Source of the DNA: an uncultured Thermoprotei archaeon
GTDB taxonomy: Archaea; Thermoproteota; Thermoprotei; Thermofilales; B15-G2
DNA length: 64,000 bases
Direction: 5' to 3'
NCBI GenBank assembly: GCA_965367815.1
Contig: CBDUKN010000007.1
Coordinates: forward strand, 32,001 to 96,000
Shown: piece after piece, positions 10,646 through 32,520 of the stretch
How the letters are laid out: every line of letters starts with the position of its first letter
How positions within the stretch are numbered: the stretch's first letter is position 1
Program-made: the position numbers and the translations under genes
The notes under the pieces: model-generated
The model's input: the letters and a program-made list of their open reading frames with translations, nothing else
What the model was told of the DNA's origin: nothing
Database searches by the model: none

Positions 10646-12067
10646 TTAAATAATTTTCATCAATATTCTTCTAAGCTTTAATTCGAGCTCTTTCGCTACT
10701 TCTTTTTCTTCACTAAATATGTTTTCTTTCTCGGGCTGATCTCCTATACTCCAGTCTTTAGGCGGAGGCGGAAGATAGTTCCTATCAAGACTATATAACT
10801 CCGGCTCCACCTTCTCTTGTTCTTTTATGTATCTTGTGCCGAAAGTATAGGGTGTCATTTGCTGAGGCCAAAGATATAGACTATAGTCTTCTGTCCTAAT
10901 GCTCCACGACCGCCCATAGTGTCCTGCTATTGCACAGTCTCTAACATGTTCTTCTTCTCCTAGCAGGACTGGCAGTAGACTTTTGCCTTCATATGAAGGC
11001 TTTACAGTCCATCTGCTTCTTTCTTCAGGTAGCTTAAGTAGGTCCACTATTGTGGGAGCCAAGTCGACTGTCTGAACGAATGTTTTTACTCTTTTCGGCT
11101 TTGCTCCTAGTTCTTCAGGAGGCTTAATCATAAAGACTATTCGCGAAAGCTCTTCGTAGGGCCAGGGCCTCACTTTTCTTATTATACCATGTTCTCCTAG
11201 AGGCTCTCCGTGGTCGCTAATAAGTATTATCAACGAGTTCTCCCATAGTCCTAGCTCCTTTACTTTCTCGAAGAAAATGCCTACCCACTTATCTACTAGC
11301 GTGATTTCGCCCGCATACTGTGCTCTAATGTGCTGTATTTCAGGTAAAGTGAAGTGCTTAATGAATCCGCCGTCTTTTCCTCCTATTGATGGATGAATAA
11401 TAGGTAGGCCGCTGTAGTCAGGAGCATATAGTTCATAGTATTCTTGTGGCGGGTCCCATGGCTCGTGGGGATCGAATGAGTCTAGCCACAAAAAGATTCT
11501 GTCTTTGCGTCCTCTAGCTACTTGTTCTTCAAGCCACTTAATGGCTTCTTTAACTACTTGAGCTACAAAGTGGTCTTCTTCGCTTTTCCAGTGAGCAGTG
11601 TTCTTGAGGTATTGAGTTAAGACATTTCTATCGTGGTCCGTGAGATAGTTCTTAGGACTCCATTTACTTAAATCAACTTTTATATTTGGGTCGACTATAT
11701 AGGGGTCTGCTTCCTGGCCTCTAATCCACTTTACGTAGTCAAATCCTCTCTCGTAGGCCATAGTAGGCTTATGCATGTGGTATGTGTCACTTATAAGTGC
11801 CGTAACATAGCCGCTATCCCACAGGACTTCAGCTAAAGGAACGTCTTCTGGCTCAAGCCTCTGCCAGCCTTTTCTCATTAAAGTATATCTGCCTGTAAAA
11901 AGCGCTGTGCGTACAGGAAGTGTAGGCATTCCTTCAGCGTAGGCTCTATCAAAAACAATACTTTCCTTTGCAAAAGCATCTATATTAGGTGTCTTAATCC
12001 ATGAGTTACCATAGCAACCTAAATGATCTGGCCGCAGGCTATCAAGCATCACAATAATTACGTTCAT
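10646..12067 (-). CDS. Sulfatase-like hydrolase (alkaline phosphatase superfamily) with Thr at the nucleophile position
   Basis: MLDSLRPDHLG, TLPVRTALFTGRY, FDPHEPW, SDHGE. Confidence 0.88.
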   Translation of the reverse strand: MNVIIVMLDSLRPDHLGCYGNSWIKTPNIDAFAKESIVFDRAYAEGMPTLPVRTALFTGRYTLMRKGWQRLEPEDVPLAEVLWDSGYVTALISDTYHMHKPTMAYERGFDYVKWIRGQEADPYIVDPNIKVDLSKWSPKNYLTDHDRNVLTQYLKNTAHWKSEEDHFVAQVVKEAIKWLEEQVARGRKDRIFLWLDSFDPHEPWDPPQEYYELYAPDYSGLPIIHPSIGGKDGGFIKHFTLPEIQHIRAQYAGEITLVDKWVGIFFEKVKELGLWENSLIILISDHGEPLGEHGIIRKVRPWPYEELSRIVFMIKPPEELGAKPKRVKTFVQTVDLAPTIVDLLKLPEERSRWTVKPSYEGKSLLPVLLGEEEHVRDCAIAGHYGRSWSIRTEDYSLYLWPQQMTPYTFGTRYIKEQEKVEPELYSLDRNYLPPPPKDWSIGDQPEKENIFSEEKEVAKELELKLRRILMKII

Positions 12068-12148
12068 ACAAGTGAATACTCAGGTTTTGTAATAAAACAC
12101 TTTGCTGTCAATAAACATAAAAGCAAGTTAAACGTAAATAATCCTGCT

Positions 12149-12520
12149 GTGAGTAAAGTAAGCAAAGAATACATTAAAAGTGTTTTAAAGGAAATACAGG
12201 ATGCTTTAGATGAACTAAAGACTATAACTAAATTTAGTGAATCTGATTTTATGTCTAGTAGAACACTTAGATTTTCAGCTAGATTCTCAATAATACAGAT
12301 AGTAGAAGCTGCATCTGACCTAGGAATAGCAATACTCGAAAAAGACTTTTCGGAGACAGCTGAAAGCTATAGGGAAGTTTTTTCAAAACTAGCTTTGAAA
12401 GGAGTAATTAAATCTGAAACAGCCGAAGAGATGGAAAAAATAGCATCTCTAAGAAACATGATTATTCATAGATACTGGAGAATTGATGATAGGAAAATAT
12501 ATAGAGATGCTATTTCGGGA
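12149..12520 (+). pseudogene. HepT-like (DUF86) HEPN RNase toxin, 5' part, interrupted by the TnpB element
   Basis: RNMIIH (Rx4H) motif. Joins in frame to 14702-14764 to give a 144-aa protein ending ...IYRDAISGGICAIERFMEEVREYVSKDC*. Confidence 0.85.
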
Positions 12521-12541
12521 AACTTTCGAGAGCGGTTATGT

Positions 12542-12724
12542 TTATTGTTTCTTGTTCCACCAATATAGGAGTCGATACGGCACACCTATTAAGCTCTCCT
12601 CTACAACAATGATTACCGTATTTCCCGCCTTACTAATCCACGAGCCAAGCACCTTACCCTCTACCTTAAACTCCTTCGGCAACCTATACTCAAGCCACTC
12701 ATCACTCCCTAAACAAGAACTCAA
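12542..12724 (-). CDS. Small hypothetical cargo ORF inside the element
   Basis: 60-aa ORF that reads like coding sequence; no recognised motif. Confidence 0.35.
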   Translation of the reverse strand: MSSCLGSDEWLEYRLPKEFKVEGKVLGSWISKAGNTVIIVVEESLIGVPYRLLYWWNKKQ

Positions 12725-12796
12725 AGCCCATAAATCATGAATATAAATACTTAAATTAACATCAAGGTAAAATACTTGGAGAGAGGTGGGGGGAGG

Positions 12797-12858
12797 GTTC
12801 TATTGCTTCTGAGACTAGTATTCCCCCGGCAGGGGGTTTGGTTTAGAAGCAATAGGGC
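12797..12858. other. Long stem-loop within the left arm of the element
   Basis: CTATTGCTTCT (12800-12810) is perfectly complementary to AGAAGCAATAG (12845-12855), with an inner CCCCC/GGGGG stem. Confidence 0.7.
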
Positions 12859-12977
12859 ATTGGGCAATGAGTTCCGTGTCAGTCACTTACTTCTATTCAT
12901 TCACTAATATACGAGTGAGGAAATAACTATTGCTTAAGCTTTGTCAAGGAAACTAATATACTGTATGGCTATTTATG

Positions 12978-12993
12978 CAAACAGCTTATATAT
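12978..12993 (+). promoter_or_regulatory. Putative BRE/TATA promoter for the omega-RNA/tnpB transcript
   Basis: TTATATA at 12986-12992, ~25 nt before the start of the GC-rich structured region. Confidence 0.55.
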
Positions 12994-13014
12994 CTCTGAA
13001 ACAACTATTACTTT

Positions 13015-13129
13015 AGATGACCCACTCTACCTCTAGGGTAGAGTAGCGATGAGGCGAGAGCCCTATGGCTCAGTGAGCCCCACCCCAGGCCCACAGCTAC
13101 TAGAGCTACGTGGGGTGTCTCCCCGGGAT
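13015..13129 (+). ncRNA. Putative 5' half of a split TnpB omega-RNA
   Basis: GC-rich hairpins (ACTCTACC/GGTAGAGT, GGC-GAGA-GCC, GGCTC/GAGCC). 13102-13127 pairs with 14591-14618 and 13085-13092 pairs with 14693-14700. Confidence 0.55.
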
Positions 13130-13183
13130 AGGGAAGGCAGGTGCCCCCCGCTACCATTCTTTACGGAGCGGTGGGGGTGTCTT

Positions 13184-14580
13184 GTGGGGCGAGAGGTAGA
13201 GGTTTTAAGAAGTAATATTTTGAGGATAATAGAGGATGAGAGTTTTTTAGAAGAGCTTAGGAAAGAATTTAAGAAATACTTTGATACTGCAAATAAATTC
13301 ATAGAACAGTATTATCGGGAAAACTGTAGGCTTCCTAGTGTTTTAGAAGTCTATAGAGTTCTTCGTAGAAATAGTGCTTTCAGTGTTATTTCCAGTGAAG
13401 TAGCTAGGAAGGTCCTAGAGGCTTGGAAATCTTATATTGAGCTTAAAAAGCGTGGCTATAAGGTTGAGAAGCCGGAATTTAGGAGGCCTTCAATTATTCT
13501 TCATAATCAGCAATACAGGATTTATGCTAAGAGGGAAAGTGATGGATGGTCAGTTGAGAAAATCGAGGTGAGGCTTAACAGGAAATGGATTTCAATTAAA
13601 GCTAGAGGGAAGCTTAGACGGATTCCAGTATTGGAGAGTGGTCTAGTATTTTACATTAATATTGATAGAAAACTAGTATATTTGAGACGCTACTTAACAG
13701 ACAAATACTTGATTCTAGGAGAATACTGCACTAATAAAAATAAGGCGAGATTTTTCAGAGAAATAATAAGTGGTATTTTGTTTTTAGTGTTTCTTTAAAG
13801 ATTCCAGTGCTTAAGGGGGATGGTGTAGCGGGTGTAGATATTGGTGTAAGGAATCTTATAGCGCTTGTCGGAATTGACGGTGAAGGTGAGGCTTTTTCAC
13901 TGTTGTTTAAGAGTGGTACCTTAAGGGCTTACTGGCTTAAAAACGAGAAGCTTGCTAGACGGAGACAGAAAATCGCTTACAAGTATTTCTGGGGAGCAGC
14001 AAAGTGTGCTGAAGAAGGTAATAGAGAAGAAGAGAAAGAGTTTTTCAGTAAATATGAATTGTATTTGAGGAAAGCAGGAAGGTTTAAGAAGAAGGCTAGG
14101 GAGGTTCGTAGGAAAGCGGTTAATCAGATGTGTCGATTGATTGCAGAGTTTCTTGTAGAGAAAGGTGTTTCAAGGGTGTTTGTTGGTAATTCGGTATGCT
14201 ACTGTGTTAGTAGTGAAGAAGAAGTTAAGAAAGTTTCTAAGTCTACTAGAGAATTACTGCGCAACTTTTTTGCTTCCCGTCAAATCATTAATGCTCTTAA
14301 GCGGCACTGTGAGGTCAGGGGTATTAGAGTAATTGAGGTGAGTGAAGAGAATACTAGTAGTGTTTGTCCTGTGTGTGTTCAGAGGGTTGAGCGTCCTTAT
14401 AGAGGGCTAGTAGTGTGTGAGAAATGTGGACAATTTAACGCGGATTTAAGTGCAGCATATAACATAATGAAGTTTAATAGTAGTGTCGAGTTAAGTGGTA
14501 AAGAGTTAAAAAGACTTCTCAATAATCCTAAAACATTCCTCTACCTTACTAAGGAACAGAAATGGATATCTAAAAATTAA
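13184..14580 (+). pseudogene. tnpB: TnpB RNA-guided endonuclease with one -1 frameshift near 13744-13768
   Basis: GGGGGTG SD then GTG at 13184. The -1 frame reads QRNNKWYFVFSV..GVDIGVRNL (RuvC-I), VFVGN, EENTS, CPVC/CEKC zinc finger, NADLSAAYNI (RuvC-III). Confidence 0.88.
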
Positions 14581-14596
14581 ATCTTTTTTACCCGAT

Positions 14597-14700
14597 AGGG
14601 AGACACCTCACTAGCTCTCTCCGAAGAGGAGGGGTAACCCGCCTGACCCCCAGGCAGGCAATGAAGGGGCAAAAGCCCCCAAGCCGAAAGAGGGGTCTGG
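14597..14700 (+). ncRNA. 3' part of the TnpB omega-RNA scaffold (element right end); the guide would start at 14701
   Basis: Hairpins GGG-GTAA-CCC, GCCTG/CAGGC and GGGGC-AAAA-GCCCC lie directly downstream of tnpB and run to the junction. Confidence 0.65.
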
Positions 14701-14764
14701 AGGCATATGTGCAATAGAAAGATTTATGGAAGAGGTAAGAGAATATGTGTCTAAGGACTGTTGA
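14701..14764 (+). pseudogene. HepT-like toxin, 3' remnant
   Basis: GICAIERFMEEVREYVSKDC* in the same frame as the 5' part. Confidence 0.75.
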
Positions 14765-15207
14765 GGAAAAGAAAAAGTTTACATTCTACAATATTAGCTT
14801 TAATTCTCGGAAAAAATTCTAGATAAAATAGCTCTTATGTTAGAGAAAGAAAAAGAAATAATTTTTGCAGTAATTTATGGCGGATTTATTGATTCAAAAA
14901 TTTTTAGAGATATTGATATAGCAGTTTTCACAGGATATAAAGTGCCGTATGAAGAAATGTGGTCTTATACGGGGTCTCTGGCTAAAAGACTCGAGGAGGT
15001 GGCAAGTATTCCAGTCGATATTAAGATGCTTGATTACGCTCCTCCTTCTTTTAGAGTAGAAATCTTAAAAAAGGTAAAGTTATAGTCGACAAAGAGCCTT
15101 ATATAAGAATCATATTGAAGTGGGCATCATTATGTGAATTAAATGATATTTCAATAAAATGTAATAAAATTAAAAGTATTTTAGGCGAAGAGGTATTAAG
15201 CCCTTAA
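14745..15207 (+). pseudogene. MntA-like minimal nucleotidyltransferase antitoxin with two frameshifts
   Basis: YGGF...RDIDIAV motif. The frame breaks at A-runs near 14811-14816 and 15067-15072. Start overlaps the hepT 3' end. Confidence 0.75.
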
Positions 15208-30666: not shown

Positions 30667-32520
30667 ATGTATATGTTTGATAAAGCTTTTCAGTTGGCAA
30701 TAATGATTTTCTCGAGCTTAATGATGGCACAGCTTTTCTCTAGAACTTTATTCGAAAAAGAGTTTTACAGAAAAGTAAACTTCCTGTTAATATTTCTTGT
30801 ATCAGTCTTACTCATGTATAAAATAGAGCCAATGCCCTTCGAACTAGCTCTTTCGCTTATAGTGCCGCCCTTTAGACTAGAGTACTTAATGACTTTTATT
30901 CTAGCGTTTATACCCTTCCTTATTCCTTTAGCTATACTATTTTCACGCGGCGAAACGTGGCTACTCGCAGAGATAGTCGTACGTTTTCTTAGAAGAAGGC
31001 GCCTTAGAACACTATTAAATGTAATGACAGTAGCCTTAGTACTCTCGGTACTAACCTCGGTTGCCGCTATATCGCCGCTAAAATCATTTTATGTAATGAA
31101 AATAGCACAGACACCAGCAGAGCTAAAAGAGCTGTGCAAGCACCACCACGTATACATATTGCTCTATAAGGAATATACCTGGATTGCATCTACTGAGGCA
31201 AGTATACAGAAGGAAGAAATGAAGTCGCTGACACTGGAAGTGAAAACAGGCTTCTTGTCACTTTTCAGCAAACCTGAAGCAGTAATAGACTTCATGTACA
31301 CTGAAGGCCTAGCTGACGGGAAAAAAGTTCAAATTCTCATAACCGATACTAACACTTTACAAGAGATCTTTCCATCAAATTTAATATTAAAAAAATTAAA
31401 TGAAAAAACACTAGCTTACGCCAATTCATATACTTTAATAAATACTACAATCAAAATAAACAGTATTGATCGCGAATTTAAGCCCAGCGGATTATTTAAT
31501 TTAACAGAAGTGAAAATAACAAGAGACATAGCTATTCTAACAAAAACTCCTTCAATCTTAATCGACATTAAAGCACTTAAACCAGAAGAGATTTTAAACC
31601 TCGTAGATGCAGGAGCCTTAAAGTACGTAGTTGTCGCAGTAAATCATGCTGTTAGCAAATCGAATCTAGAAAAATTCATTAAGTTATTTTCAAGTGAAGC
31701 GAGCTACCAAGAAAAAGCTCTTGTATACACACCACTAGTATTGCAAATAGATGAAAATAACGTAATGATGTATTTCACTATAGGCACATACTACATGTTT
31801 TCAGGCGAAATAGGGTACTTGTTCTTTGCAGCACTATCAATTTTCCTACTCCTATTTTCAACAATTCTAGGAACTGTATATGAGAGAAGCAAAGAGTACT
31901 CCATCCTAGCCTGTCTAGGGGCAACTCCTAGTAAAATATACCTTGTCATGTTCCTTGAAGGAGCCTACCTAGCCTCCCTTGGAGGAGTACTCTCAATGTT
32001 TATTGCATATCCTATAATAAGGGAAGGGATATCAGCTTACTACAAATCAAACTTGCCTTCAATATTCTTTCTGTCACTAGGCACAAGCTACCTAGCAACA
32101 ATAGCCTCATATTTAGCTCTAAGAATTAAAGGAATACGTGAAGTTACTCCAAGCCGCGTAATAAAATACACTGCGGAAAGAAAGAAAACAGGGGGAGAAT
32201 TCGAAGTACCCATAAAAATTCACGACTGGAGTAGTTTCAAGCATTTCCTCAAAGAAATCGAAGGAAAAAACGTTGAACCAGGAATAAAAGTACTAAAGGT
32301 ATCCGAGGAAAACGGAAATCTAAAAGCACTAGTCGCATGTGGTATAGATAGAGAAGCCCTATACATGTTTACATTAATTTATTCAGGAGAATCTGTAAAA
32401 ATCAGGGTTGCAGGCGAAAGAACATGGACAGCTGAGCACTCCAGATTATATGACCTCGCTGTAAGAAGCTTTAGAAAACTAGCCTTAAGATACTCACTCA
32501 AAGAAAAATTAAACAAGTAA
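30667..32520 (+). CDS. FtsX-like permease paralogue
   Basis: RRRLRTLL TM1 entry, ERSKEYSILACLGA, MFLEG, TPS tail. Confidence 0.8.
   Translation: MYMFDKAFQLAIMIFSSLMMAQLFSRTLFEKEFYRKVNFLLIFLVSVLLMYKIEPMPFELALSLIVPPFRLEYLMTFILAFIPFLIPLAILFSRGETWLLAEIVVRFLRRRRLRTLLNVMTVALVLSVLTSVAAISPLKSFYVMKIAQTPAELKELCKHHHVYILLYKEYTWIASTEASIQKEEMKSLTLEVKTGFLSLFSKPEAVIDFMYTEGLADGKKVQILITDTNTLQEIFPSNLILKKLNEKTLAYANSYTLINTTIKINSIDREFKPSGLFNLTEVKITRDIAILTKTPSILIDIKALKPEEILNLVDAGALKYVVVAVNHAVSKSNLEKFIKLFSSEASYQEKALVYTPLVLQIDENNVMMYFTIGTYYMFSGEIGYLFFAALSIFLLLFSTILGTVYERSKEYSILACLGATPSKIYLVMFLEGAYLASLGGVLSMFIAYPIIREGISAYYKSNLPSIFFLSLGTSYLATIASYLALRIKGIREVTPSRVIKYTAERKKTGGEFEVPIKIHDWSSFKHFLKEIEGKNVEPGIKVLKVSEENGNLKALVACGIDREALYMFTLIYSGESVKIRVAGERTWTAEHSRLYDLAVRSFRKLALRYSLKEKLNK

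Follow-up and report, generated by a model that had tools for sequence, protein, structure and literature searches.

Whether an archaeal tnpB element can use RNA from upstream of its gene to mark, or even to complete, the guide RNA encoded downstream is the question raised by a 2,181-base-pair (bp), tnpB-only insertion sequence (12518-14698, + strand) in the window, by which is meant the whole 64,000-nucleotide (nt) stretch analysed here, from contig CBDUKN010000007.1 of an uncultured Thermoprotei archaeon. TnpB/omega-RNA systems are the ancestors of Cas12, and to our knowledge separation of the guide RNA from the nuclease mRNA has been described only for bacteria, either by self-processing or through competition with intron splicing in IStrons. 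In the window element, a stretch of the tnpB leader is complementary to the 5' edge of a structured RNA downstream of the gene. A first-pass annotation interpreted this complement as part of a bulge-helix-bulge (BHB) intron that would contain tnpB, split its omega-RNA in two and be excised by EndA, the archaeal tRNA splicing endonuclease. As set out below, the stem is present and conserved and is more likely to have been selected than to be accidental, and splicing at its inner end is quite unlikely.

The stem between the tnpB leader and the 3' RNA

Every base pair and coordinate proposed in the first-pass annotation is found in the sequence. The 5' arm GTGGGGTGTCTCCC (13110-13123) pairs with the 3' arm GGGAGACACCTCAC (14598-14611) over 14 bp, including a single G-U pair (13113 G / 14608 U), and the same 14-nt arms were recovered by a repeat search. 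On the tnpB side, the arms are followed by a 4-bp central helix, CGGG (13124-13127) with CCCG (14591-14594), and an ATA lies 3' of each central strand (13128-13130 and 14595-14597). A further 7 bp on the outer side are formed by AGAGCTA (13102-13108) and TAGCTCT (14612-14618). This outer helix is real in the window copy, but its 3' strand overlaps the 5' strand of a variable-length hairpin of the 3' RNA, and it amounts to only about 4 bp in other copies; we regard it as specific to the window copy.

In a chance test, gapless helices between the 656 nt upstream and the 240 nt downstream were compared with 200 dinucleotide shuffles, of which three reached the observed score for the window copy and none for the C8 paralogue. 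RNAduplex, applied to pieces of 400 nt x 280 nt, was uninformative because long interior-loop chains make real and shuffled energies overlap, and was replaced by this gapless-helix scan. When the putative primary transcript (1705 nt) was folded, the 14 arm pairs had a probability of 1.0 at 37 °C and 0.86-0.99 at 80 °C, with corresponding values of 0.99-1.0 and 0.75-0.82 for the central helix and 0.84-1.0 and 0.55-0.95 for the outer 7 bp. The minimum-energy fold contains the long-range helix at both temperatures in C7 (the window copy) and C8, and at 80 °C in L031. A local hairpin at the 3' site (CCC-GAnA-GGG), suggested by RNAalifold for the 3' RNA alone, was rejected: it is outcompeted by the long-range helix in full-length and two-strand folds, and is also broken in C4 and in L009/L038.

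Nine related elements have a readable 5' region, and in five of these the arm stands as a separate block (C7 = L029; C8; L025 = L027; L028 = L030 and L032; L031). In two-strand folds all five look alike, at 37 °C as at 80 °C: 13-15 bp of helix are followed by a 3-nt bulge in the 3' strand and then by CGGG/CCCG, with spacers that vary in their letters (5' AUA or AGA; 3' AUA or ACA) and not in their length. Two further elements, C4 and C26, carry a fused arm, which runs into the ribosome-binding site and start codon, and form a helix of 10-11 bp with no BHB-like geometry; both appear to have arisen by deletion between the 5' arm and a sequence that resembles it at the translation start, GTGGGGGTGTCTTGTGGGG (13170-13188). 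Conservation of the 4-bp helix and the 3-nt spacers, which the first-pass annotation had named as a check on its proposal, is thus found in five of the nine elements but not in the other four.

In our view selection is the likelier origin of the stem, because few parts of the diverged leaders are as well conserved as the arm, because it persists when separated from tnpB by an old insert, and because an unrelated TnpB family shows the same principle. Together with CGGG, the arm is nearly invariant in the otherwise diverged leaders of L028 and L031, and it is kept in C8, L025 and L028 despite an insert of about 400 nt between arm and tnpB. The unrelated family, at C21:39898-41900, combines a tnpB of a different family and a related leader domain with an unrelated 3' RNA. 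There, a perfect 19-bp complement links the 5' untranslated region (UTR; C21:40213-40231) to the element's own 3' RNA (C21:41699-41717); it was matched by none of 200 shuffles, and the minimum-energy folds at 37 °C and 80 °C both contain it. A repeat of the BHB geometry in this family was considered and discarded: a GUUU/GAAC helix and a UGA bulge can be traced by eye, but the folds predicted at 37 °C adopt a different register and those at 80 °C have none. What recurs in this genome is therefore the long-range complement of 5' UTR and guide RNA, and not its BHB-like detail.

The RNA against which the stem abuts appears, from its sequence, to occupy the position expected of an omega-RNA, as a conserved structured RNA that ends at the right end of the element (joint 14698/14699). 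In ten aligned copies the common layout is an AT-rich box and T-rich tract, ACCC(C)GAnAGGGAGAYRCCYC ACTAG, the variable hairpin, TAACCCGCCTGACCCCCAGGC, a second covarying hairpin and GAAAGRGGGGTC, beyond which the copies diverge (the paralogues after GGGGTC(T)). The core consists of the variable-length hairpin, a GCCTG/CAGGC hairpin with a conserved ACCCCC loop, a GGGGC/GCCCC hairpin and the 3' strand GAAAGAGGGGTCT, and a pseudoknot may form between the ACCCCC loop and GGGGT. The TATA-like box and T-tract between tnpB and this RNA could serve as a terminator for the tnpB mRNA, as a promoter for the 3' RNA, or as both. An Rfam search returned nothing at gathering score in the window, and three weak, unrelated hits at an expectation value (E) of up to 10 between 12700 and 14900.

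The leader is likewise structured, in the order TATA-like box, covarying hairpins, arm region, ribosome-binding-site hairpin and GTG start (13184). Across five leaders, hairpin 1 shows double compensatory changes (CTCTACC/GGTAGAG versus CCTTACC/GGTAAGG), and the hairpin at 13144-13177 also covaries (GCTACC/GGAGC versus GCCACC/GGGGC and CTCCAC/GAGGGAG). The GC content is 0.67 at 13050-13149 and 0.62 at 14600-14699, versus 0.26-0.47 inside the tnpB open reading frame (ORF). A C/D-box RNA, considered by eye on the basis of GATGA motifs in the leader, was dropped as no CUGA boxes were seen.

The reading that we favour, tentatively and as plausible rather than probable, is that the stem has been selected for closing or processing, as a mark or protection of the guide's 5' edge, or else as an antisense link between mRNA and guide. 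We infer that both arms are co-transcribed and that the stem has a function. The transcript would begin with the GC-rich, structurally conserved leader, whose 14-nt arm would pair directly 5' of the omega-RNA core, leaving the AU-rich ORF in a closed loop of about 1.47 kb. The stem would tie the leader to the guide-RNA 5' edge, in cis on read-through transcripts or in trans between a leader RNA and the 3' RNA; it might mark or protect that edge and, through processing or antisense control, couple the fates of tnpB mRNA and guide RNA. Where the arm is fused, the same helix would mask translation initiation. Because the inner end of the stem is shaped like a relaxed BHB, the most concrete way in which the guide edge could be made is cleavage at 14596/14597 by the host endonuclease; no evidence requires ligation into a composite scaffold.

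Alternatively, the 5' arm could be a relic with no RNA function, a leftover inverted or duplicated piece of the right end or of the translation start that was spread by gene conversion of a promoter-leader module; the tnpB mRNA would then end at the T-tract and the 3' RNA would have its own promoter. This explanation, which we consider unlikely, finds some support in the leader module (12943-13099/13185), which is 95-96% identical among C7, C8 and C4 versus about 70-73% for the tnpB bodies and so points to recent module exchange. Antisense copies of the omega-RNA core occur upstream of tnpB in C8, L025, L028 and C27, the arm resembles the start region of its own gene, C4 and C26 look like deletions between these two direct repeats, and a TATA-like box and T-tract are conserved ahead of the 3' RNA. 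However, the helix left by a simple inverted duplication would be continuous (…CCC TAT CGGG), and neither an inverted nor a direct repeat explains the 3-nt offset and the CGG letters. Nor would a relic be expected to leave arm and CGGG nearly invariant in diverged leaders and in elements with an old insert, or to be accompanied by a perfect 19-bp complement with sharp ends in a second family.

Several observations nevertheless weigh against a selected stem. The arms carry no compensatory change, only G-U pairs, one bulged C and a terminal mismatch, which is also what a relic would show. C21a and C27 have no arm, C5 has no 3' arm although its ORF is open, and the window tnpB copy is itself a pseudogene. 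The partner of the 5' arm in the minimum-energy folds of L025 and L028 is an arm-like copy closer by, in the insert. The antisense omega-RNA segments, which give about 11-27 nt of continuous pairing with no bulge in the copies read, recur upstream of tnpB, and DNA rearrangement alone can therefore create complements. The T-tract may end the mRNA before the 3' arm. Finally, pairing of the ribosome-binding-site region with the 3' arm is barely above composition in five of eight copies: shuffled arms reached the observed energy in 30, 61, 11, 50, 0, 44, 14 and 31 of 300 cases, with 30 to 61 in those five, and universal masking of the ribosome-binding site by the 3' arm was mostly rejected as a composition effect. 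The fused copies, which keep the helix, count in favour of the stem, with corresponding controls of 0/300 (C4) and 11/300 (C26).

The BHB geometry and the splicing proposal

If EndA spliced this RNA, cuts after 13129 and 14596 would release a 1467-nt RNA, as had been calculated correctly, that is probably circular and carries the ribosome-binding site and tnpB. The leader, of about 115 nt, and the 3' RNA, of about 102 nt plus guide, would then be joined by RtcB into a composite scaffold; this would measure about 220 nt and have CGGGAUA as its closing loop. We regard this as quite unlikely. The geometry does fit in part, with a 14-bp exon helix, a 4-bp central helix made up of G-C pairs only and 3-nt segments 3' of each central strand, and the 3-4-3 spacing is kept in all five arm-bearing elements while the spacer letters vary. 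The central 4-bp helix of archaeal BHB motifs is present in all five.

However, only part of the BHB reading withstands folding: the long-range helix, the 4-bp helix and the 3-nt spacing are real, but a second flanking helix is not predicted. The weak intron-side helix of the first-pass annotation, whose 3' strand would be supplied by 14572-14589, has a probability of 0.00-0.03 in the canonical register and is absent from the two-strand folds of all five elements, although in L031, L025 and L028 it could start with one or two G-C pairs. Therefore, only the bulge on the 3' strand is predicted and the 5' "bulge" opens into a loop, so that the layout reads helix, 3-nt bulge on the 3' strand, 4-bp helix and open loop. 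By the definitions given in the parts of PMC3239211 drawn on here, the motif is not a strict 3-4-3 hBHBh' (two bulges, each flanked by helices) and fits only the relaxed hBH type. Covariation, proposed as a further check, was not found: all differences are one-sided (G-U, one bulged C, a terminal A-C), none is compensatory, and the 4-bp helix is invariant.

The host is in principle equipped for such a reaction. Its genome encodes two EndA-family proteins (PF01974, over cut-off; C4:141353-141607 and C4:137336-137584) and RtcB (C8:73046-74353), and the two EndA-family genes are consistent with an (alpha-beta)2 enzyme, a subunit architecture read from gene count. In line with the premise that crenarchaeal enzymes accept relaxed motifs, (alpha-beta)2 endonucleases are described as cutting motifs that lack one bulge (PMC3239211, in the same parts). 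There are also precedents for long-range BHB stems in pre-rRNA and for BHB substrates other than tRNA and rRNA, namely the cbf5 mRNA and the HVO_1309 5' UTR (PMC7714728, in the sections consulted). Circular omega-RNAs in haloarchaea and unexplained circular RNAs at IS200/IS605 genes in two Sulfolobales are reported in the portions of PMC12558985 used here, in which no BHB was found at the circles mapped. In addition, the 3' RNA of the window family, which lies wholly after the tnpB stop codon, is about 100 nt long versus about 130-170 nt for the GC-rich RNA downstream of two other tnpB families of this genome.

Several observations speak against a split omega-RNA. The leader 5' domain, in variant form, also precedes C21a, C27 and the different-family tnpB at C21:39898-41900; a leader module that different TnpB families have in common is unlikely to supply one of them with half of its guide scaffold, and the BHB-like register is not the predicted fold in that other family. 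C26 (intact tnpB, fused arm) and C21a (intact tnpB, no arm) keep the family 3' RNA without the motif; C4 is a second copy with a fused arm, but one with a broken tnpB. C26 and L025 have identical 3' RNA and different leader layouts. A T5-T6 tract lies 2-7 nt before the 3' site (in the window the T6 noted earlier, 14584-14589), and a TATA-like box and T-tract stand between tnpB and the 3' RNA, which also counts against one continuous transcript. No exon-joined form was found in the DNA contigs examined. The direct repeat GATAGGGA, pointed out in the first-pass annotation, does occur at both sites; it is 8 nt long (GAUAGGGA) and could mimic a junction, so that the same "junction" could arise by DNA recombination or by template switching of reverse transcriptase.

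The fuller proposal, in which EndA excises the tnpB mRNA as a circle through a relaxed BHB, RtcB ligates the leader to the guide RNA, a single transcript yields both message and guide, and some of the circular RNAs associated with archaeal IS200/IS605 elements are thereby accounted for, is in our view distinctly improbable. As to its novelty, full-text literature searches found no BHB intron or split guide at tnpB. A conserved leader-to-guide stem, if true, would be a new control layer in archaeal elements. If the host splicing endonuclease cuts this stem, it would be the first case known to us of a mobile element using the archaeal BHB pathway for guide-RNA maturation, and would provide a testable origin for the insertion-sequence-associated circular RNAs reported with no BHB. 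If the arm is only a relic, the locus is an ordinary tnpB pseudogene in a recently mobile insertion sequence.

The element, its gene and its insertion site

The features of the element are collected in Table 1.

Table 1. Features of the window tnpB element, with positions in the window
Feature	Position	Strand	Basis and remarks
Truncated small ORF, left-end region	12542..12724	-	full-length relative is a 145-amino-acid open frame, G000:C2:142957-143391 (-)
TATA-like box TTATATAT	12986..12993	+	sequence; block conserved in 6 leader variants; putative promoter
Predicted transcript start TTTAGATGA	~13013-13020	+	estimated position
Leader 5' domain: hairpin 1 (~13021-13046) and nested hairpin (13051-13081)	13021..13081	+	RNAalifold, 5 leaders
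Outer helix, 5' strand	13102..13108	+	sequence and fold; window copy only
5' arm GTGGGGTGTCTCCC	13110..13123	+	sequence, fold; among best conserved leader blocks
CGGG and ATA (proposed 5' bulge/cut site)	13124..13130	+	CGGG invariant in 5 elements; spacer ATA or AGA
Hairpin including ribosome-binding-site G-run (GGGGGTG, 13173-13179)	13144..13177	+	covariation
tnpB, -1 frameshift near 13746	13184..14580	+	two ORFs, 13184-13798 and 13807-14580; GTG start at 13184
AAAAATTAAAT, TATA-like, overlapping the stop codon, then T6 (14584-14589)	14572..14589	+	same place in all 10 aligned copies
CCCG and ATA (predicted 3-nt bulge, proposed 3' cut site)	14591..14597	+	sequence, folds
3' arm GGGAGACACCTCAC and TAGCTCT	14598..14618	+	arm in 9/10 aligned 3' ends, deleted in C5
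Omega-RNA core	14612..14698	+	10-copy alignment, covarying hairpins
Putative guide segment, host DNA 3' of the right end	14699..14718, extent nominal	+	empty-site joint and known TnpB layout

The window tnpB matches PF07282 (1e-12) and PF01385 (9.1e-8; 32.8 bits, cut-off 30.5), and the intact C26 copy matches PF07282 (1.2e-13), with PF01385 below cut-off at 23.8 bits. The frameshift reflects one base fewer than in C26, and it is identical in L029, an independent metagenome assembly of the locus with 99.71% identity over 2754 nt. The zinc ribbon and the RuvC-III aspartate motif are present (CPVC...C.KC...NAD aligns to the solved chain 8j12_A, profile E 0.00097), and so is the RuvC-I aspartate (G.D.G motif), as iagvDiGa aligns with GIDLG of 8j12_A in a weak stretch. 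A single-sequence search of solved structures gave no match, and a profile search gave weak TnpB/Cas12f matches. An invariant block of the alignment, VYIGNSVC (residues 335-342 of the C26 protein), falls at what we take to be the usual position of the RuvC-II catalytic glutamate, and no glutamate is seen there. Judging from this alignment, the family may fall among the TnpB branches with a rearranged catalytic site, the existence of which is described in the part of PMC10691335 drawn on here.

Intact tnpB ORFs are found in C8 (477 amino acids), C26 (469) and C21a (526); the other copies in the genome are open but cut by the contig end (C5), broken (C4) or fragments (C27, C21b and C9). The last ~65 nt of the G000:C5 contig beside its tnpB copy (L003) resemble what we presume to be sequencing-adapter sequence, and this contig end is probably an assembly artefact at a repeat. 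The family is narrow: five of 41 genomes of the same order matched at E 1e-10, only a same-genus genome had a close homologue, and two of 120 genomes matched in a class-level scan at E 1e-40. Eight loci from a metagenome scan reduce to four distinct elements, and protein scans of the genome-contig and viral-contig collections gave no relatives. A pattern scan of the genome-contig collection returned 21 stretches, one of them an archaeal family member with its 5' region cut off; the remaining 20, from bacteria, are read as chance matches.

The bounds of the inserted unit follow from DNA contigs that join 12517 directly to 14699 (2181 letters skipped, 3 shared), which were found in three of four runs; the two joints have GGA in common, so that the ends are ambiguous by 3 nt. 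A single 2,422-nt contig spans both sides of the empty site, with one differing letter per side. Because an empty site exists in related DNA, the window element has been recently mobile. It interrupts the 3' end of a HepT-like ribonuclease gene (12023-12568; PF01934, 5.4e-22), the uninterrupted form of which is present in contigs of related strains, and a nucleotidyltransferase gene (14837-15085; PF18765, 2e-9) lies downstream; the two are probably a toxin-antitoxin pair. The leader arm of the stem is not part of a terminal transposase site and lies about 500-600 nt inwards from the left end. The genome yielded a single resolvase-family gene and no Y1 transposase gene, and the window is free of tRNA genes.

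Relatives of the small opposite-strand ORF occur in the left-end region of several elements (C2, C4, C5, C15 and C25), and a Pfam search found no family for either the truncated or the full-length form. The left part of the element also contains a GC-rich inverted repeat (12800-12810 / 12845-12855, within the piece 12776-12866). In C9 (G000:C9:37896-38260), this piece lies about 20 nt from a fragment with the last ~250 nt of tnpB and the 3' RNA, an arrangement that looks like a deletion derivative with neither leader nor nuclease. Within the tnpB ORF, 60 nt from its start, lies a second T6 tract (13243-13248), at which a short leader RNA could terminate. The insert of about 400 nt between leader and tnpB is located at ~860-1200 in L025, ~870-1200 in L028 and ~32190-32500 in G000:C8, and is also found in G000:C27 (L020); it carries an antisense copy of the omega-RNA core (e.g. 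GGGGGTCAGGCGGGTTACC) and the arm-like CCCGTGGGAGACAC, and after it come a second hairpin and ribosome-binding site. The insert may represent a nested remnant, or else an anti-guide RNA.

Comparison with known systems

The closest likeness is to the TnpB/omega-RNA systems of IS200/IS605 and IS607 elements, such as ISDra2. The window family shares with these PF07282 and PF01385, the zinc ribbon and the NAD motif. Its structured RNA runs up to the right end, beyond which host DNA presumably supplies the guide, and it occurs in several diverged copies, with an empty site as a sign of recent mobility. It is unlike them in that the short 3' RNA begins only beyond the stop codon and in that 14 nt of the leader, which is GC-rich, conserved and about 170 nt long, are complementary to the 5' edge of that RNA. 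No description of a leader-to-omega pairing was found in full-text literature searches.

Archaeal pre-rRNA stems and the BHB introns of tRNA, rRNA, cbf5 mRNA and the HVO_1309 5' UTR resemble the window motif in their long-range helix, in the two 3-nt segments with a 4-bp helix between them and in the kilobase-size insert, and the window host has EndA-family genes and RtcB. However, the window motif has neither a predicted second flanking helix nor covariation and is at best a relaxed hBH, and the T-tract raises doubt that the two strands of its stem share one transcript.

In IStrons, too, 5' and 3' RNA segments of a tnpB element interact, and splicing and guide formation would compete for the 3' region (PMC13565253, in the part drawn on here). 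Unlike these, the window element has no group I ribozyme (no Rfam hit at gathering score), and splicing would not restore the host gene, since the putative sites are set in from the left end by 612 nt and from the right end by 102 nt. The archaeal circular RNAs at tnpB loci are of unexplained origin in the sections of PMC12558985 consulted, where those of S. solfataricus are placed at the gene 5' end. These circles were mapped with no BHB, whereas the window has a predicted BHB-like motif, known from DNA.

Finally, as in type V tracrRNA:crRNA duplexes and in split tRNA halves that complementary leaders bring together, two separately encoded RNA segments would be held to each other in the window element, by a duplex of 14-21 bp beside the guide scaffold; split tRNAs form relaxed BHB motifs in trans (PMC3239211, in the parts cited above). 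The window element differs in that a related leader also precedes an unrelated TnpB family.

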